Shown here: one piece after another, positions 33,340 to 44,092 of the stretch
Layout of the letters: every line of letters begins with the position of its first letter
Position numbering within the stretch: position 1 is the stretch's first letter
Assembly: GCA_016778305.1 (NCBI GenBank)
Contig: JADHPT010000009.1
Location: 5,608-69,607 of the forward strand
Direction: 5' to 3'
DNA length: 64,000 nucleotides
From: Poseidonia sp.
GTDB lineage: Archaea > Thermoplasmatota > Poseidoniia > Poseidoniales > Poseidoniaceae
Notes under the pieces: generated by a model
The model's input: only the letters and a program-made list of their open reading frames with translations
Told to the model about the DNA's origin: nothing
Databases searched by the model: none
Program-made: the position numbers and the translations under genes

Positions 33340-34629
33340 TCAAGCACTCTTGTTGGCTTTTTGAGCGATTGCTCGCTTGAAAACAGATTCATAATCGGTA
33401 GCATTGTGCTCATATGTGTACTTCGAAAGTACTCTCTCACGTCCCAGTAAAGCTTTCTCTTGCGAGTCAACATCTGATAGCATTTGGTTTACACATGTTG
33501 CTAGATCATCAGGATCTCCTCGTTTGAATAACCCGCCGACAGAAGTATCAACCATCTCTGTCAATGGTTCCTGGTCAACAGTTGCTACAGAAGTTCCACT
33601 CGCTAATGATTCCAAAGGAATGAGCCCTTGACCCTCATAATATGAAGGGTAAACTACCAAATCTGCAGAACGGAAATGTTGCGCCAATTCTTCGAAGGAA
33701 AGGCTACTTTGGATAAAAATCGAATCTGAGATTCCTAATTTCTTAGCTTGTTTCTCGAGACTGGATTTCATATGACCCCGGCCTACAATTACCAAACGAG
33801 CACCGGGGTTTTTCTGCAATATATTGGGCATTGCTCTCAGCAGGGTCATGTATCCTTTCCGTGCCACTAAGCGACCAACCGCCAGTAACATAGGAGTTTT
33901 TGTTTTGGAAGAATATGAGAGAGCGTCTTCGTCAGCGCAATCATATTGTAATCGTATTCTCTCGTGTTCTAATTGCTCAGCCTCGTCATCAATATTAGGC
34001 GGCCTGAACACTTTATGGTCACAGCCCCACAAGATTACTTCACAATCAAAATTCTCGTCAGGCCGGTACCATTGTTTGAATTCCTTGAGTGTGGATTGGG
34101 AGTTCGCAACACAAATACTCGACTCTAATATTCCCGCACGTTCGTATTTTGAATACCACTTACCGGTAGTCAGAATTGCAAGGTCGTTAGGGTTTCGCCA
34201 CGTAGCAGACTCACGTGCCGCCGCAGCTCTCTTTACCCCTTCCTTTTCACCCAACCAAGAACCGTGAAGGCAAGATACGACAGGAGCGATATTGTCTTCT
34301 AACCACCTGAACTCTTTCCTCTTCCATGAGACGAGGGGTAGATGTGCATTGATGATATCGATTGGCTTCTTGCTGTGCAATTGCTTCAGGGCTGCAAAGG
34401 CGTTCTTGCCGTACGATCGGGTGAAAGCCATAGGGAGCTTAGCCCATGGAACCGAGACAACATCAACCCCCGCAAGAGAAGGTGGTCTTTCTGAGTGACT
34501 CCTCGTGATAATGGTGACATCGTGGCCCAGTTTGACAAAGTGGCCTGCTAAATGAAAAACCACTGAACCTATGCCTCCCCAACGTGGAGGATATTCACCG
34601 GACACTATGGCTATGTGCATGTCGAACAA
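33340..34629 (-). CDS. glycosyltransferase family 4 protein
   Basis: EYPPRWGGIG, VGRLVARKG and PSYYEGQGLIPLESLASG motifs. Confidence 0.92.
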   Translation of the reverse strand: MFDMHIAIVSGEYPPRWGGIGSVVFHLAGHFVKLGHDVTIITRSHSERPPSLAGVDVVSVPWAKLPMAFTRSYGKNAFAALKQLHSKKPIDIINAHLPLVSWKRKEFRWLEDNIAPVVSCLHGSWLGEKEGVKRAAAARESATWRNPNDLAILTTGKWYSKYERAGILESSICVANSQSTLKEFKQWYRPDENFDCEVILWGCDHKVFRPPNIDDEAEQLEHERIRLQYDCADEDALSYSSKTKTPMLLAVGRLVARKGYMTLLRAMPNILQKNPGARLVIVGRGHMKSSLEKQAKKLGISDSIFIQSSLSFEELAQHFRSADLVVYPSYYEGQGLIPLESLASGTSVATVDQEPLTEMVDTSVGGLFKRGDPDDLATCVNQMLSDVDSQEKALLGRERVLSKYTYEHNATDYESVFKRAIAQKANKSA

Positions 34630-34848: not shown

Positions 34849-35724
34849 TCACTCAGCTGCAGCAAGTGCTTCGGTTGCTTTCTTAGCACCCATCCAAGCA
34901 ACAATACCGAATCCGATCTTGTTGATGATGTCTGCAATGTTGTAAGCAACAGCCATGATCTCTGCTCCGTTGTCTATGTCAATGAGGGAGACTTCAGGGC
35001 TGAAGAGGTAACCGAGGGGGTAGATAATCCATCCAACGACGATGAACCAGCGGAGAGCGTTTGCGCTCCAGAGAAGTTCTTCAGAAATCTTGGAGTTGTC
35101 GACGCCCAGACCGTCAGTCCAAGGTGTTCCAGTGGCGACAATAATCATTGCCCAACCCATACCGCCAAGCAAGAGAGCGGGGATAGGGCTGAGGAGGCCG
35201 GCTTCACCGAGGTATCCGAATCCAATCATGATGAGAGCACCGGTGAAACAGATGCCGGTGAATCCGAGACCTGCCACTTTCTTGTCAGTGATGGCTTCCT
35301 TTCCAACAAGGGACGGGAATTTGAGGGCCATCAACGGAACGGTGATGATCCAATCCATGTATCGGTACTCGATAGAGACCACGCCGAAATCAGCGTAGAC
35401 ACCACGCATGTAGTAGTAGTGGAATGCAGCGATACCAACGATGAGCGCTGAAATCGTCATGGTTGTGCGGAATTGTGGAGCGACGTTACTTCGCTCACTC
35501 ATGAAGAAGACGAAGGCGGCACCCATTGAGATGTATCCGACGAAGAAGAGGAAGAAGGTCACAAGTTCCAGACTGTCATTTTCGAGGCCATCGGAAAGGA
35601 ATGCCGGAAGTCCGGTTTTCTCATTCATTTCACCGGCCGCAGCACTGACCGTAGAGGCCATTGCAAGGGCGATTGTGGCAATTAAAAGCAGGCTCGTTGT
35701 TTTGGAGAATTTTTCAGTTAGCAT
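34849..35724 (-). CDS. proteorhodopsin-like microbial rhodopsin (DTK motif)
   Basis: AAFHYYYMR, YRYMDWIITVPLMALKF, GWIIYPLGY and ADIINKIGFG (retinal-binding Lys); signal-peptide-like N-terminus. Confidence 0.95.
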   Translation of the reverse strand: MLTEKFSKTTSLLLIATIALAMASTVSAAAGEMNEKTGLPAFLSDGLENDSLELVTFFLFFVGYISMGAAFVFFMSERSNVAPQFRTTMTISALIVGIAAFHYYYMRGVYADFGVVSIEYRYMDWIITVPLMALKFPSLVGKEAITDKKVAGLGFTGICFTGALIMIGFGYLGEAGLLSPIPALLLGGMGWAMIIVATGTPWTDGLGVDNSKISEELLWSANALRWFIVVGWIIYPLGYLFSPEVSLIDIDNGAEIMAVAYNIADIINKIGFGIVAWMGAKKATEALAAAE

Positions 35725-35754
35725 GTTTCTCAAGTCGCGCTTTTTGGGAACGTG

Positions 35755-38491: not shown

Positions 38492-39763
38492 TCATTCGTC
38501 GGTGTCTTCGTCGAACAAAACAGGATCGCCCGTACCGCCTGGTGAAGGTGGACGAACCCCATCAACATCCATGCCCTTCTCGAGCACTGTTTCACCTGTT
38601 TCCAAGTCAAGTTCTGCGCCATCGGCTAACTTGGCCATGTCCTCGGTATTCGGGGCCTTGATGGTGCGCTCAAGGTCAGGAGCATTGGCATAGAGTTCCC
38701 GCTTGAGTTCCCGACTCTCGTGACTTCGTACGAGGGAAAGTGAATCAGCAAAGACACGTCCAACGACCTCACGAGTTCGCTCACTTCGGCGAGCGGAATT
38801 CAATTCATGCTCCATCGAGCTTCGCTGGTCTGCGATTTCACGCAGTTCTGCGGTACGGTCTTGGAGTGCTGCTTCAATGTCGGTCATGGTCAGCGTCATT
38901 TGTTGGAGACGCTCATCGCGTTCGAAGACCTCGTTGTGCAGGCGACGCTCACGACGTCGCAACGACTCATACTCTCGGTTTCGTTCAAGCAATCGTCGCT
39001 TCAATTCCTCGATTTGCTCGACCAGATAATCGTGTTCCGCAGATACGGACCGGGGACCCTGCATGACGCGCTCAAGCTGTTCTTCCAACTCTTCCAAACG
39101 GCGATCCCTTGCATCGAGAAGACCACGGAGTCGGTCGGCGATGTCACGAAGTCGTTGACGTTCTTCTTCAAGGGCCTCAGCAGCAGCCTTTTCCACTTCG
39201 AGTTGGCGCTGACGTTCATCGACTTGTTGCTTGAGCAAACGGACCTCTTCTGCCGTAACCGAGGTCAAGCCTGCATCTGCAGCCTTTTCCAAGGCCTCAA
39301 CCATTTGCGTGATTCGGCCTTCCATCTCTCCGATAACTTCGTCCTGTTGAGTAGTAAGTTCACGCAATTGTGAAACTTCATGCTCCATCGAACTTCGTTC
39401 TTGTTGGGAGAGCGAGGATTGCTGATTTGCTAACTCTTCTTTTGTATCGTTGAGAAGACGTTCGAGGTGGACAATTTTCGCGTCCGCCTCTTTCATCGAT
39501 TGTTCAGTTTCGGCCAGCCGGGCAACCTCTGGGGCGACCTTGTCGTGGCGTTCAGCCAAATCCAATTCAACAACGCGAAGGCGTTGTTTGACCGTGACCA
39601 ATTCGTCGTTCCTTTTTCCAAGCTCGTCCCAGGCCACCAGGACCTCCTCAACGAGTTGCTCTACGGGGTAGCCTTTGAGCATCCCCTCAAGCGCTGCGCG
39701 CTCATCGTTGGACGAATTTCCAACACGACGGATACCACCGGGGGACGAACTCTCTACAGCCAT
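38492..39763 (-). CDS. long coiled-coil protein
   Basis: About 300 aa of E/L/R/Q heptad-like sequence; no ATPase motif; acidic disordered tail. Confidence 0.8.
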   Translation of the reverse strand: MAVESSSPGGIRRVGNSSNDERAALEGMLKGYPVEQLVEEVLVAWDELGKRNDELVTVKQRLRVVELDLAERHDKVAPEVARLAETEQSMKEADAKIVHLERLLNDTKEELANQQSSLSQQERSSMEHEVSQLRELTTQQDEVIGEMEGRITQMVEALEKAADAGLTSVTAEEVRLLKQQVDERQRQLEVEKAAAEALEEERQRLRDIADRLRGLLDARDRRLEELEEQLERVMQGPRSVSAEHDYLVEQIEELKRRLLERNREYESLRRRERRLHNEVFERDERLQQMTLTMTDIEAALQDRTAELREIADQRSSMEHELNSARRSERTREVVGRVFADSLSLVRSHESRELKRELYANAPDLERTIKAPNTEDMAKLADGAELDLETGETVLEKGMDVDGVRPPSPGGTGDPVLFDEDTDE

Positions 39764-39855
39764 ACGGCAATGCATGCCCGATTGACTACACTTGAACCTT
39801 CCCGCCACGGCAGGGGAGATGAGGCCGTATTTCAGACCCTTTTTTCAGCACCGAA

Positions 39856-40860
39856 TCAATTGATTGAGGTGTACATGTCATCAGGCATGTCGCCGGCGAG
39901 CTTGAGTGCACCAATGGCGACTGAGTTGATGGGGTCTTCGACGCACCAAACCTTGACATCACCGATGTCTGAGATTTCGCTTGCGACTCGCTCAGCACTT
40001 CCTTCAATCAGGGAGCCGCCACCGGAGAGGATGATGTTGTTGCGGAGAATAGGCTGGTATTCGGGGTCGGCACCAGCAACGATCTTCTTGATGGCGTTAC
40101 CGATCTTTGGAATAATCAATCCGCATGCCTCTTGAATCAAATCACCGATGTCGACAACTTGTTGCTTACCCTCAACGGAGAGTTTGACAGTTACTTCGCG
40201 AGTATCACCGCCAACGTAAGACGACTCCTCTTTCCACTTACGGACCATGTCCTTGGTGACCTGCGCGCCGGTGTACTTCTTCTTGATGAGGTCCATGAGT
40301 TGGAGGTCAAGCCAATCACCAGCTTCGGTGATGGTGACTTGGTCTTCATCGGTAGGGAAGGTTCCGTAGACTCGTGCGATGTCGGTTGTACCGGCACCGA
40401 TATCAACAACGATTGAACCAGCGATCTCATCGATTCCGTAGGCGGTAGCGAAGGGTTCGGTAACGACCATAATGGCGTTCACTTGTCCACGAAGGGTGGC
40501 AACAAGGTTGGATTTGTCCGTGAAGGAAACGTGGCTTGGAGAGCAAATAACGCCAAAAACCTCGTCGTACTCTTCAGGGTCAACGGTTTCAAGAAGGTGC
40601 GAGACGAAAGCCTTGGCAGCAGCCAGATTTGCCTCATCATCTTGGGTGACTCCAGCAGCCATTGGGCGGTAGAGGTTGCAAGCAAGTTTGTTCTTCAATG
40701 CATCATCGCCGAACAGGACATCTCGGCCGAGGAAATTACGAGCCACTGCATCCTTTGGACGTCCGACGACGGTTTCGATTGTATGCATCTTATCAGCGCT
40801 TGATGCGATGGTAGATTGGTAGGTTCCAAGGTCAATTCCAACATAAAGGCGGTCACTCAT
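39856..40860 (-). CDS. actin-like ATPase, MamK-like
   Basis: GIDLGT, VVGRPKD, TEPF, VDIGAGTTD, EDQVTITEAG, LSGGGS and GALKLA motifs; GGTGA SD upstream. Confidence 0.9.
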   Translation of the reverse strand: MSDRLYVGIDLGTYQSTIASSADKMHTIETVVGRPKDAVARNFLGRDVLFGDDALKNKLACNLYRPMAAGVTQDDEANLAAAKAFVSHLLETVDPEEYDEVFGVICSPSHVSFTDKSNLVATLRGQVNAIMVVTEPFATAYGIDEIAGSIVVDIGAGTTDIARVYGTFPTDEDQVTITEAGDWLDLQLMDLIKKKYTGAQVTKDMVRKWKEESSYVGGDTREVTVKLSVEGKQQVVDIGDLIQEACGLIIPKIGNAIKKIVAGADPEYQPILRNNIILSGGGSLIEGSAERVASEISDIGDVKVWCVEDPINSVAIGALKLAGDMPDDMYTSIN

Positions 40861-40981
40861 TTCATTCACCTTCCGACTTGCGGACATGTTGGCGAGTCCG
40901 CCATCAACCTTCAAGGTTCACCTTGATATTTTGAGGAGAATTATACCTTCTCTCGCAATAAAAAGAGCCGCAGTTAGTCGT

Positions 40982-43900
40982 TTATTCTTGTTCGGTAGAA
41001 CTTCCAATTCCCTGAGCCAATTTCTCGTCTGAAAAGGGCGGATACGACCCTTCTTGACCGCTAGACGAGGCATTCAATACCCGAAAGCCCCGTGCAACAG
41101 CAAAGCCCAACAACATACCAATTATTCCGATCAACACCATTGGTTGAATGGTTACACTTGCGTCGTCTGACACGGGAGCGGGCTCGTCATCATGCATGGG
41201 ATTGTTCCATGTGAATGAAAGGTTCTCGCGAGCGACGGTCGTGATCGGTGGCTGAACGGCTGCGGGCGACCCATTTGTTGTCTCGATCGTCACAGCTATT
41301 TCGTAGGTTGTCGATTGGAGGTAATACGGGGGCAAATCATTCGGAATACTCCAGGTACACCGATGCAGAACCCCCGGCTGTAATGCGATTCCGCTGCAAG
41401 CGAATACAGAAAGATTCGTCTGGTTGGTGAAACGAACTGTAAAATTGGAAACATAACCGTCGCCATCATCATCTACAACACGCCAAGCAACGGAGAGATT
41501 GTCGGTAATGGTGCTGTTATCTTGGGGCGCTTCCACGACAACGAGAAGAGGGGCCTGATCGATGGGGTAACATCCCGATCCGTCCACGGGCCAAGCAAGG
41601 TCGTCGGTCAAGCACGCATCATCGGGGTCGGCCACACCGTCACCATCTGTGTCATCGATACAACCATCCACATTGGCATCAAAGCCACGGGCATCTTCTT
41701 CCGGGCAAAAATCGTCCAGGTTGTGGACGCCATCTCCATCGTCATCGTCAAGGCAACCATCATCGTTGAGGTCAGCAAGACTTGCATTCTCCATCGGGCA
41801 AGCATCGTCGATATTGTTGACTCCGTCCCCGTCCCCGTCCATGTGGTCATCCGAGTCGCGCTCAACACCGCTGACGACAAGAGCAAAGCCAACGGCATCT
41901 CCATCAAGGCCAACAGAACCTGGAGTTCCACCAGGCACGACATAGCGGGCTGCAACCTCAACCTCGATGAAGCGGGAACCATTGATCAGTGATGCGGGAA
42001 TATCAATCCCGAAGGTGGTCTCGTTGCTTTGGGGGAAGAGCGAGGTATTGCCGAGATCGACCACACTTCCGTAAAATGAAGTGGGAGCCCCATCACCCTG
42101 AATACGATCGGCAACCATGACACTCCCATCATCCAGTCGAACCCGGAGTTGGAGATCATCAACAAGCGCAGGCTGCGCTTTGGCGGGATAGGCCAAGCGG
42201 ACCCGTACGGATTCGTTGTCAAGAGGAGTAAAGCGGTGCGTGAATGCATCTCCGGTTTGCAAAAAGGGGCCTGAGGCGCCTTGACCGAACCAAGGGTTTT
42301 GTTCAAAAGCACTCAATCCCCTATCGTTTTCAGCATATTCATTGAACCAATCATTGACGGTGGTATTGTGCAATCGATAACTGTCGTGTGCCCAGAGATG
42401 AGCTCCCGGAGACTGGCCATCGGTCAACGACGTCGTGTCAACCAGCGTGCTTAGGTTGAGCACTCCCCACCCGTCATAGGGGTTGTGGAGAGCGTTGGAA
42501 ACATCCCCTCCGGATCGGAATTCATTGTCAAGCGGGGTCGTGGATAACGCCAGCGTAGCCCGTAGGAGCGCTCCTGATGGCGTAAAGCCAGATCCGAGGG
42601 CGACGCTTCGAACATCTGGAACTGCCCATTCAGGTTGAATATCGCTCAAGTTGACATGTGTTGTCGGCTCCCAAGGGCCGTGTATCCACCCGTCTTCGTA
42701 GAGCTGCTGGATGATCCCAGCACTTCCCGCAGCTAAGGGGGTGGCCATACTGGTTCCAGAAGAAAGCCTCAACCCGTCGTTGTTGGTGTCCCAGAAACCA
42801 TCGCCATTCGCTGACTGAATATTTTTTCCGGGCGCGAGGAGGAAGACGCCATCAGTACCTTCCTCGGTCGGCCCGTAGGCGGTTGAACCCCACCGTTCGG
42901 GAGAGGAATCCTTCGTACTTGCACTCACGGCAACAACATTTCTCCCGTTAGCTGGCTCAAGAATTCCTTGCCCCCCATTTCCAGGGGCGATGAAAGCGAG
43001 CGACCAAGGCATCGCTCGAGCATAACTATCGAAGTGACCGGTACGCTCTGTATAAGCGGTGGTATCGTCGCCCCAAGAATTGGAATGGATCACTGCACCG
43101 TGCACACTTGCTTCATACAGCAGTTCATCGACATTCGGGGGCGACCATCCGCTCTCGTTCACAATGTCCTGAACCACGAGCCGTGCACCATGAGCGAGGG
43201 TACTCCCGTTGGCTGGCTCAGCACCGGTTCGCTGGCTCTGTACGTCTCGACAGCCAAGAGAAGCAACAACGTGGGTGCCGTGTCTGTAATCGCTCTGTCC
43301 GGGGGTGTCGTTTCCATCAATGGTGTCGTTGAGGAATATGATTTTCCGATGTGATTCACCAAAAATTCCGACAGCAGGATAGGGCGCACCCTCTTCTGCG
43401 TGCAAGGAGGTATCTTGTGTTGCGTTGCGAAAACAGGCATGGTCGGCGTCAATTCCACTGTCGGCTACGCCGAGAACGATTCCGGAACCGTCCAAGCCGA
43501 AGGTCCAGAGAGGATGGGATGAAAATACCCCGTCCTGGAGCAGGGCACTCGCTTGGGCGTTTCTCGCTTTCGTGGTAAGAACAGGCTCAATCCACAAGAC
43601 GCCATCCAAGCCCAGCAACCTTTCAACAACCGAACGTGAGCCGACGCTCAAGTGTACTGAAGTAGGCAATACCGATTCAACAAGGGCAACGCTCTCTATT
43701 AGTTCGGCATCGAGGAATGAAAGAGAAGCAATGACCTCCTCTTTGACAAGAAGGGGAAGGTTCGGTTCAAAGACGAGACGAATATCACTCCAACCTCTAT
43801 CATCCAACCCTCCTTTCCAGACTGCATCGTCGAATGGAATCACTTCAACATAAGAAGGAAGGACTGACTGCGTTGGATGCCAAACCAACAACGTCTCAGG

Positions 43901-44092
43901 ACTTACAACTCGCAGTGGGACAACGCCGTGTTGCTCCATCTCCTCCCAAGCCTGCGAAGTCCATACCGCTTGGTCGAGCCGCAGTAATTTTTCTTCTCCG
44001 CCGATATCCGGTTTGGGCATGTAAGCGGGCGTTTGGAGGCCCGAGGCGAGGGGGAGCACGAACAGGAGAACGAGCCACCATGCCGTGCGCAT
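40982..44092 (-). CDS. secreted S8 subtilisin-like peptidase with thrombospondin type 3 repeats and C-terminal membrane anchor
   Basis: Catalytic triad motifs ADSGID, HGTHV and SGTSMATP; HSNSWG; DxDGDGV..D.CP repeats; C-terminal TM helix. Confidence 0.92.
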   Translation of the reverse strand: MRTAWWLVLLFVLPLASGLQTPAYMPKPDIGGEEKLLRLDQAVWTSQAWEEMEQHGVVPLRVVSPETLLVWHPTQSVLPSYVEVIPFDDAVWKGGLDDRGWSDIRLVFEPNLPLLVKEEVIASLSFLDAELIESVALVESVLPTSVHLSVGSRSVVERLLGLDGVLWIEPVLTTKARNAQASALLQDGVFSSHPLWTFGLDGSGIVLGVADSGIDADHACFRNATQDTSLHAEEGAPYPAVGIFGESHRKIIFLNDTIDGNDTPGQSDYRHGTHVVASLGCRDVQSQRTGAEPANGSTLAHGARLVVQDIVNESGWSPPNVDELLYEASVHGAVIHSNSWGDDTTAYTERTGHFDSYARAMPWSLAFIAPGNGGQGILEPANGRNVVAVSASTKDSSPERWGSTAYGPTEEGTDGVFLLAPGKNIQSANGDGFWDTNNDGLRLSSGTSMATPLAAGSAGIIQQLYEDGWIHGPWEPTTHVNLSDIQPEWAVPDVRSVALGSGFTPSGALLRATLALSTTPLDNEFRSGGDVSNALHNPYDGWGVLNLSTLVDTTSLTDGQSPGAHLWAHDSYRLHNTTVNDWFNEYAENDRGLSAFEQNPWFGQGASGPFLQTGDAFTHRFTPLDNESVRVRLAYPAKAQPALVDDLQLRVRLDDGSVMVADRIQGDGAPTSFYGSVVDLGNTSLFPQSNETTFGIDIPASLINGSRFIEVEVAARYVVPGGTPGSVGLDGDAVGFALVVSGVERDSDDHMDGDGDGVNNIDDACPMENASLADLNDDGCLDDDDGDGVHNLDDFCPEEDARGFDANVDGCIDDTDGDGVADPDDACLTDDLAWPVDGSGCYPIDQAPLLVVVEAPQDNSTITDNLSVAWRVVDDDGDGYVSNFTVRFTNQTNLSVFACSGIALQPGVLHRCTWSIPNDLPPYYLQSTTYEIAVTIETTNGSPAAVQPPITTVARENLSFTWNNPMHDDEPAPVSDDASVTIQPMVLIGIIGMLLGFAVARGFRVLNASSSGQEGSYPPFSDEKLAQGIGSSTEQE

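Follow-up and report, generated by a model that had tools for sequence, protein, structure and literature searches.

MamJ and the Mca proteins are non-enzymatic, acidic or coiled-coil partners of the magnetosome actin MamK that are encoded in its vicinity. In other systems the arcadin partners, such as arcadin-2 and arcadin-4, regulate or decorate the crenactin filament, and crescentin is functionally dependent on the actin homologue MreB. The partners of MamK include MamJ and McaA/McaB; in Desulfovibrio magneticus RS-1 they are reported to include the coiled-coil proteins Mad20/23/25/26 and, in addition, Mad28 (PMC12748827). Crenactin occurs together with arcadins in Thermoproteales (PMC5173318). 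MamK is reported as the closest subfamily to salactin of Halobacterium, which forms dynamic filaments (PMC10746226), and saltatorellin, a MamK-like actin of the non-magnetotactic Saltatorellota, is described as forming filaments in E. coli with a proposed role in cell shape (bioRxiv 10.1101/817700). Here we describe a pair of genes from the archaeon Poseidonia sp. that encode a MamK-like actin, designated actin A, and a long coiled-coil protein. The genes are located on a stretch of 64,000 nucleotides (assembly GCA_016778305.1, contig JADHPT010000009.1, positions 5,608 to 69,607), which is called the window below.

The organism belongs to Marine Group II (MGII), a group that ranks with the most abundant archaea in surface waters of the ocean; to our knowledge, no pure culture of it exists. 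The cell biology of MGII is almost uncharted. We found no paper describing the gene pair; the supplementary trees of the salactin paper may include such sequences. The main MGII genome papers (Rinke 2019; Tully 2019) contain no mention of MreB and no relevant mention of actin. We propose, with a probability of roughly 0.55, that actin A and the coiled-coil protein form a filament-plus-partner module of cell architecture that is specific to Poseidoniales and unrelated to magnetosomes.

Classification and predicted structure of actin A

Counted from its first TTG codon, the open reading frame (ORF) of the actin covers positions 39856..40914 on the minus strand of the window, and the ATG at 40860 gives a protein of 334 amino acids starting with MSDRLYVGIDLG. 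This ATG is the likely start, since orthologues have 333-337 amino acids and many have a stop codon just upstream. The motifs that the initial annotation had quoted from the protein (VVGRPKD, EPFATAYGID, IVVDIGAGTTDIARVYGTFPTDEDQVTITEAGD and EDPINSVAIGALKLAGDMPDD) are all present in the translation.

Actin A is MamK-like and not an MreB. With NCBIfam models the protein scored 337.7 bits for MamK, 214.9 for BeeR, 80.4 for MreB and 29.8 for salactin. The MreB models TIGR00904 and PRK13927 gave 68.4 and 80.4 bits, against cut-offs of 365.75 and 293, and the only Pfam matches were to the generic MreB_Mbl and Actin models. Among relatives of solved structure in the PDB, MamK (5jyg, E-value 1.5e-63) was followed by 8r2n (1e-40) and MreB (7.5e-14). 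An AlphaFold2 model built on 29 orthologues had a mean predicted local distance difference test score (pLDDT) of 90.3. The best Foldseek matches of this model were MamK structures, including the filament form 5ljv_A with a template modeling (TM) score of 0.92 and a root-mean-square deviation of 2.0 Å, and the next-best fold match was the BeeR filament 8r2n. The claim of a much closer match to MamK than to MreB, FtsA or crenactin is thus borne out by the NCBIfam scores for MamK and MreB, by the E-values against the PDB and by the fold. The analogy with salactin that had been drawn alongside it is weak, because the salactin models assign actin A only 29.8 bits (NF053533, cut-off 400) and 23.6 bits (PF25229, cut-off 27.1). 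In sequence databases this actin is labeled MreB or hypothetical.

The phosphate-1 motif GIDLGT, the glutamate of the EPF motif, DIGAGTTD and GGGS are invariant or nearly so in the 29 orthologues. The EPF glutamate aligns with E143 of MamK and is conserved across the order. The flanking genes encode an S8 subtilase, PcrB, a rhodopsin and a prefoldin and give no magnetosome context, with no search for Mam families by name.

The coiled-coil partner

The gene that follows the actin encodes a protein of 423 amino acids starting with MAVESS; gene callers also use a start that gives 427 amino acids. Its position on the same strand, 92 bp downstream of the actin, was measured as the initial annotation had claimed. 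No Pfam family was found in the protein, and SMC/Rad50 models reach it with only 14-30 bits, through their coiled-coil arms, which agrees with its earlier description as ATPase-less. The acidic tail is also real: residues 361-423 have a pI of 4.05 and contain 18 Asp and Glu residues out of 63. No DNA-binding family was detected. The best 120 database matches were all from MGII and carried the names hypothetical or chromosome segregation ATPase. At an E-value of 1e-6 or better the family was present in 59 of 64 Poseidoniales genomes and was not found in 237 other Thermoplasmatota genomes.

The AlphaFold2 model of the coiled-coil protein, obtained from 29 orthologues, had a pLDDT of 80.2. After a disordered head it predicts a short helix (residues 18-30) and three long helices of 130, 64 and 121 residues (34-163, 171-234 and 240-360), which are separated by breaks at residues 164-170 (AGLTSVT) and 235-239 (GPRSV). 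The acidic tail is modeled with low confidence, with pLDDT values below 50 from residue 398 onward. Hydrophobic fractions at the heptad positions were 0.62-0.88 over most of the rod, and a continuous heptad frame extends over residues ~216-327.

Sequence conservation is highest at the start of helix 3. Over residues 240-290 the mean identity to the consensus was 0.92 and 27 of the 51 positions were invariant in the 29 orthologues, which represent three families. The conserved residues cover all faces of the helix and include positions outside the heptad pattern; the segment is conserved far beyond what heptad packing needs. Within it, arginine and lysine abound in residues 255-276, which hardly vary and lead into a long heptad zipper. 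The tail is variable except for P408, G409 and G410, which are invariant near its end.

Co-occurrence of actin A and the long coiled-coil form

The distribution of the two genes was followed in an even draw of 201 Poseidoniales genomes. Actin A, at least 63% identical, was present in 124 genomes and the long form of the coiled-coil protein also in 124, with both present in 123. One of the two exceptions (G025) is an actin A genome in which the coiled-coil gene starts at a contig end 8 kb downstream and is cut by it, and the other (G126) is an 84%-complete metagenome-assembled genome. Linkage of the pair, for which the initial annotation had suggested a synteny check across Thermoplasmatota, holds within Poseidoniales, where 123 of 124 genomes with actin A also possess the long coiled-coil form. 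In genomes of the same genus a coiled-coil match was found just downstream of the actin, on the same contig and strand, in 24 of 24 cases, and the spacer between the genes measured 74-118 bp in 24 of 29 extracted loci.

Counting either actin paralogue (actin B is described below), actin occurred in 99 of 99 genomes of the Poseidoniaceae-type family (f1), in 2 of 2 genomes of family f2 and in 27 of 99 genomes of family f3. No actin match was obtained in the 59 genomes of six f3 genera (g5, g6, g7, g8, g10 and g24), the sizes of which are 1.2-1.7 Mb as compared to 1.6-2.2 Mb for actin-bearing genomes. A lone actin match in genus g23, on a short contig and 86% identical to the query, looks like contamination.

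Where the coiled-coil gene was found in actin-less genera, it was an open frame of 143-196 amino acids that matches only positions ~3-164 of the long protein. This short form consists of the head, the short helix and helix 1, and its end coincides with the first predicted break. Five loci without actin were examined; in 5 of 5 a short form, here of 143-161 amino acids, occupies the orthologous slot, convergent with PcrB, and both the subtilase and the actin are gone from these five loci. The C-terminal ~260 residues of the coiled-coil protein are thus missing exactly where the actin is missing. Since the short form keeps the orthologous slot and ends at the first helix break, the coiled-coil gene was trimmed and not lost.

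Two divergent copies of the whole pair were observed in one genome of family f2 (G027, contigs C24 and C4, loci L023 and L024), with actins 74% and 66% identical. The copies may stem from mixed populations, given an estimated contamination of 6%.

The coiled-coil protein could instead be a self-assembling filament that is independent of nucleotides and resembles intermediate filaments (IF), as in crescentin and other coiled-coil-rich proteins (CCRP), and that is co-regulated with or positioned by the actin and does not connect actin to cargo. The predicted head, the three helices with two short breaks, the tail and the continuous heptad frame together give the head-rod-tail layout with interrupted heptad coils of such proteins, and survival of the N-terminal helix alone in actin-less lineages would also be in line with it. 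In the ESM Atlas the nearest named clusters were crescentin rod proteins, with a score of 0.92 and 146 of 256 shared features; this score lies in a range that chance also gives, and the similarity is a lead only. The crescentin rod model of Pfam (PF19220) gave no match at E-values up to 1, and a Foldseek search of the model against the PDB gave none at E ≤0.001. Furthermore, two thirds of the rod are lost exactly together with the actin, which fits a dedicated actin partner better. We regard an independent IF-like filament as unlikely.

A shared upstream motif

Both the actin and the coiled-coil gene are preceded by a rare palindromic motif, GTGAASSTTSAAG, with the core TGAA-NN-TTCA. Allowing up to 2 mismatches, 21 of 29 loci have it 45-54 nt ahead of the ATG of the actin, and 23 of 29 have it 15-34 nt ahead of the ATG of the coiled-coil gene. 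After shuffling of the sequences 0.3 hits per 29 loci were obtained, and random genomic windows of 133 nt gave 48 hits in 3000. The strict form of the motif has 9 sites in the whole 1.9-Mb genome. The copy in front of the coiled-coil gene is kept where other genes separate the pair. Because each gene has its own copy, the two genes would form separate transcription units that are co-regulated, probably by one common factor.

Two further strict copies were observed 9-25 nt before long ORFs of 522 and 368 amino acids elsewhere in the genome, on contig C22 near position 259047 (+) and on contig C28 near position 33756 (+). These ORFs may belong to the regulon as well.

In the metatranscriptome libraries of one study, contigs with at least 99% identity match both genes over most of their length. 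An oligo-dT library yielded a 1.5-kb contig, derived from a relative with ~93% identity, that includes the spacer and the actin together with the start of the coiled-coil gene. As these are assembled contigs and carry-over of DNA is possible, they indicate the presence of the sequences in the libraries only. A scan of the locus for bacterial-type promoters and terminators gave counts no higher than in shuffled sequences. By eye, a GC-rich inverted repeat was noticed in several loci (L023, L025, L027, L034, L041 and L048), within the first ~40 nt that follow the stop codon of the actin. It could be a terminator or an RNA element; in the window itself it does not stand out.

Actin B and the phylogeny of MamK-like actins

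The genome encodes a second actin of this type on contig C22, designated actin B, which is 48% identical to actin A and scores 368.6 bits with the MamK model. The gene immediately before that of actin B, on the same strand, encodes a protein of 338 amino acids with zinc-ribbon-like cysteine motifs at both ends, and the two genes together cover C22:216951-219107 (L002:1480-3657). The zinc-ribbon protein was detected in 26 of 41 relatives and directly precedes actin B in every case listed among them. Actin B is never followed by the coiled-coil gene, the palindromic motif was absent from promoter-like positions of the actin B module (0 of 8 loci), and the zinc-ribbon/actin B pair was not found in the small-genome genera without actin A.

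A quick maximum-likelihood tree was calculated from 101 sequences, with midpoint rooting and with support values only from the Shimodaira-Hasegawa-like approximate likelihood ratio test. Actin A and actin B, with 8 sequences each, were both monophyletic (support 100) and were sisters of each other (98). Sister to both (95) are 14 proteins of 523-1232 amino acids, which form a clade and have a long disordered acidic N-terminal extension in front of the actin domain. One of these proteins is 63% identical to a record of Caldithrix sp. (L082:4001-7507), so at least one member of the clade comes from Calditrichota. A larger clade of 46 sequences (97) unites actins A and B, the Caldithrix-type clade, sequences from other Thermoplasmatota and a cluster from anaerobic methanotrophic archaea of group 2 (ANME-2)/Methanosarcinales. 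The MamK-like protein of Paramagnetospirillum falls in another part of the tree, together with clusters that bear the names of Gemmatimonadota and others. In this tree actins A and B lie in a mostly archaeal MamK-like clade, apart from the Paramagnetospirillum protein.

The members of the sister clade (P0242-P0256) were seen to have a conserved N-terminal helical domain of ~90 residues, a very long, disordered acidic linker and a C-terminal MamK-like actin domain. Outside Poseidoniales, MamK-like genes were found in 7 of 237 sampled Thermoplasmatota genomes, at 36-43% identity, and none was found in 8 genomes of the sister family in the same class. Three of the other Thermoplasmatota genes are each directly followed by a gene for a protein of 425-618 amino acids (L065:1746-4055, L066:161-2773 and L067:3143-6279). 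These proteins have a globular N-terminal domain and a short C-terminal motif, both conserved, with a variable middle part that is coiled, of low complexity or rich in proline. Elsewhere in Thermoplasmatota, in two genomes of a further family, the MamK-like gene stands among chemotaxis-like ORFs (L069:1027-6160 and L071:1607-7450), which were assigned by reading the sequences, with no family search, as a CheA-like histidine kinase, a receiver domain and CheC-like proteins.

Profile comparison with hhalign detected no homology of the MGII coiled-coil protein to the partner family of the other Thermoplasmatota actins (probability 0.2%) or to the N-terminal domain of the Caldithrix-type long actins (0.7%). 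Archaeal MamK-type actins thus tend to come with a dedicated elongated partner, as is reported for MamK and the coiled-coil Mad proteins of deep-branching magnetotactic bacteria (PMC12748827).

Proposed function and alternatives

Actin A most likely polymerizes with ATP into MamK-type filaments. Such ATP-driven polymerization is predicted because the protein keeps the ATP-binding motifs and has a modeled fold that resembles the MamK filament form. The coiled-coil protein would be an elongated rod of three segments that probably forms a dimer, and would consist of two functional parts. Residues 1-163 are expected to work without actin, since they are the only part left in actin-less lineages. 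The part linked to actin would be residues 164-423, which comprise the start of helix 3, rich in arginine and nearly invariant, as well as the acidic tail and the PGG motif in it. This part may attach along the filament, bundle or anchor it, or regulate it. A complex prediction with two copies of actin A and coiled-coil residues 165-423, supplied as alignments, returned a score of 0.00 in a run without controls and carries no weight for or against binding.

The pair of actin A and its partner and the module of zinc-ribbon protein and actin B both occur in all sampled Poseidoniaceae and in the larger-genome Thalassarchaeaceae, and they are lost together in the streamlined genera with genomes of 1.2-1.7 Mb. 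The modules are thus dispensable for basic growth and division, and a role in cell shape, size or internal organization of the larger-genome ecotypes is more likely than an essential step in segregation.

Several observations weigh against a dedicated module of this kind. The MamK model NF040964 has a cut-off of 400 bits, which neither actin A nor actin B reaches, and by this criterion of NCBI actin A falls outside the MamK family; the Paramagnetospirillum MamK-like protein lies above the cut-off with 471.9 bits. The pair is interrupted in 5 of 29 loci by unrelated genes for an Ig-domain surface protein, a cupredoxin or a protein of no family, and in one genome (G208) the actin and the coiled-coil gene are on different contigs. 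All linkage data come from one order of related genomes in which the whole neighborhood is syntenic, and because the S8 subtilase, the actin, the coiled-coil gene and PcrB are all syntenic in these kin genomes, adjacency of the pair alone is weak evidence. The two actin paralogues and the long coiled-coil form vanish in the same genome-reduced genera; as actin B is lost there as well, the co-loss could reflect general streamlining and is not assignable to actin A specifically. Finally, the short form, too, has a close variant of the upstream motif in front of it, in 5 of 5 loci without actin, which means that the motif does not depend on actin.

If the two genes had no functional link at all, they would be neighbors through synteny inherited within one order, and their joint loss would be a by-product of streamlining in some Thalassarchaeaceae. 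The equal synteny of the flanking S8 subtilase and PcrB genes, the tolerated insertions, the separate upstream motif of each gene, from which each probably has its own transcript, and the smaller genomes of the actin-less genera are all compatible with this. It would leave unexplained that the same rare motif precedes both genes, that the coiled-coil gene was trimmed precisely at the first helix break instead of being deleted, and that MamK-like genes of other Thermoplasmatota also have a gene rich in coiled coil directly downstream. Mere adjacency is in our judgment quite improbable.

No result points specifically to chromosome segregation or polar organization, the two roles put forward in the initial annotation. 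The argument that a putative origin lies about 21 kb away is unsupported, since matches to Orc1/Cdc6 above the cut-off were obtained only on contigs C28 and C26 and not on C13, of which the window is a part. In ParMRC the parC site lies upstream, which is the parallel that can be drawn for the palindromic motif; each gene is here preceded by one palindrome and not by a repeat array as in a ParMRC-type centromere. A ParMRC-like segregation of chromosomal DNA, in which the coiled-coil protein would use the arginine-rich first part of helix 3 to bind DNA and would couple this DNA to growing filaments, could draw on the nearly invariant basic segment before the heptad zipper and on the palindrome as a possible DNA target, but is very improbable in view of the missing DNA-binding family, the Orc1/Cdc6 genes on other contigs, the distant relationship of actin A to salactin, the cited precedent, the genera that do without the system, and the persistence of the motif before a short form without helix 3, which argues against helix 3 as its binder.

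Entire genera lack both actin modules, which makes essential roles in division or segregation unlikely. FtsZ was found in the genome, and Snf7 (ESCRT-III) was not. SepF gave no Pfam match in this FtsZ-bearing genome; across the order there were weak matches in 22 of 201 genomes (2 over the cut-off), in actin-bearing and actin-less genera alike. SepF in Poseidoniales is probably too divergent for the Pfam model, and this result is uninformative on the idea of a division anchor. A role in motility, suggested among other things by the chemotaxis-like ORFs beside MamK-like genes in two other Thermoplasmatota genomes, was considered and rejected. None of the 201 genomes gave a match to ArlD/E (PF04659), with positive controls, and the archaellin family (PF01917) is decoupled from actin: genera g3, g4 and g21 have actin without archaellin, and g10 and g24 have archaellin without actin.

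A more specific form of the proposed module would be a composite cytoskeleton of two polymers, in which the MamK-type filament is laterally coated or cross-linked by the IF-like rod through the invariant segment of helix 3. The N-terminal helix of the rod would represent an older scaffold, independent of actin, that streamlined lineages keep by itself. We offer this version tentatively and hold it to be rather doubtful; if true, it would be the first system of actin plus IF-like protein in archaea, and MGII ecotypes with and without the C-terminal part would differ in the size or shape of their cells.

With two dedicated MamK-like modules, the cell architecture of MGII would become open to concrete study, and the actin A module is probably an internal skeleton, not studied before, in some of the ocean's most abundant archaea. 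The partner is a protein whose domain content tracks the presence of actin across genera, so that actin-bearing and actin-less genera with long and short rods constitute a natural experiment. With a mostly archaeal clade, the idea of MamK-type actins as general-purpose positioning filaments extends well beyond magnetosomes. New here are the co-occurrence of both genes in 123 of 201 genomes, retention of the short form in actin-less genera, the shared motif, the zinc-ribbon partner of actin B, the decoupling from archaellin and the finding of no member of the coiled-coil family in 237 other Thermoplasmatota genomes.

Organization of the locus and neighboring genes

The source assembly has a size of 1.9 Mb and is 94% complete. 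Actin A and the coiled-coil gene are both on the minus strand of the window, and the features of the pair are listed in Table 1.

Table 1. Features of the actin A/coiled-coil locus in window coordinates
Feature	Position	Strand	Remarks
Upstream motif GTGAACCTTGAAG	40909..40921	-	exact match, 48 nt before actin ATG
Actin A, MamK-like actin-fold ATPase, 334 amino acids	39856..40860	-	stop codon included
Spacer of 92 bp, actin stop to coiled-coil start	39764..39855	-	
Upstream motif copy GGGAAGGTTCAAG	39791..39803	-	1 mismatch, 27 nt before coiled-coil ATG
Coiled-coil partner, 423 amino acids: head, three long helices, acidic tail	38492..39763	-	stop codon included
Coiled-coil residues 1-163	39275..39763	-	N-terminal module persisting without actin
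Coiled-coil residues 164-360	38684..39274	-	helices 2 and 3, only where actin is present
Coiled-coil residues 361-423	38492..38683	-	variable acidic tail ending in conserved PGG motif

Neighboring genes in the window encode an S8 subtilase, PcrB/GGGPS, a rhodopsin, a prefoldin and an FtsY-like ORF. Across loci the syntenic order is FtsY, prefoldin, S8 subtilase, actin and coiled-coil gene, followed by the convergent PcrB gene. The claim that mreC, mreD and mam genes are absent stands in part: neither MreC nor an MreB above the cut-off was found in the genome, and the Mam families were not searched by name.

The S8 subtilase (40982-44092, minus strand) has 1036 amino acids and a C-terminal membrane anchor, and its gene is directly upstream of the actin in all more distant loci examined. 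It was considered as a membrane anchor for the module and rejected, as the cytoplasmic tails differ between loci. Because this short tail is not conserved, the protease looks like a syntenic neighbor and not like a part of the module. A gene of the bacteriorhodopsin family (proteorhodopsin type, Pfam E-value 4e-30) is present at 34849-35733 on the minus strand, ~4 kb from the module, consistent with the photoheterotrophic lifestyle described for MGII.

Comparison with known systems

Crescentin and other coiled-coil-rich cytoskeletal proteins share with the partner the head-rod-tail layout and interrupted heptad coils. They differ in that the crescentin rod model does not match the MGII protein, and the feature similarity of 0.92 in the Atlas is the sole support for a relationship. 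Saltatorellin is likewise reported as a MamK-like actin outside a magnetosome context. It is bacterial, no dedicated coiled-coil partner is described for it, and the likeness is one of description only.

Salactin is also reported as an archaeal, MamK-related actin. It differs by a long charged N-terminal tail and by having no reported coiled-coil neighbor (PMC10746226), and its own models recognize actin A with only 23.6 (Pfam) or 29.8 bits (NCBIfam). The crenactin system resembles the locus in that an archaeal actin is encoded next to partner genes restricted to its lineage, with a coiled-coil-like protein among the partners; this is again a likeness by description and not by sequence. Crenactin belongs to a separate actin subfamily that is closer to eukaryotic actin.

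The locus also corresponds to the MamK systems. Actin A belongs to the same actin subfamily by hidden Markov model (HMM) scores, sequence and fold, and in both cases an actin is encoded near non-enzymatic acidic or coiled-coil partners. The MGII system differs in being archaeal, in its lack of a magnetosome context, in a MamK score of 337.7 bits against a cut-off of 400 and in its position in a mostly archaeal clade. Its partner has no detectable homologue outside Poseidoniales and is likened to the Mad proteins and MamJ by description, not by sequence.

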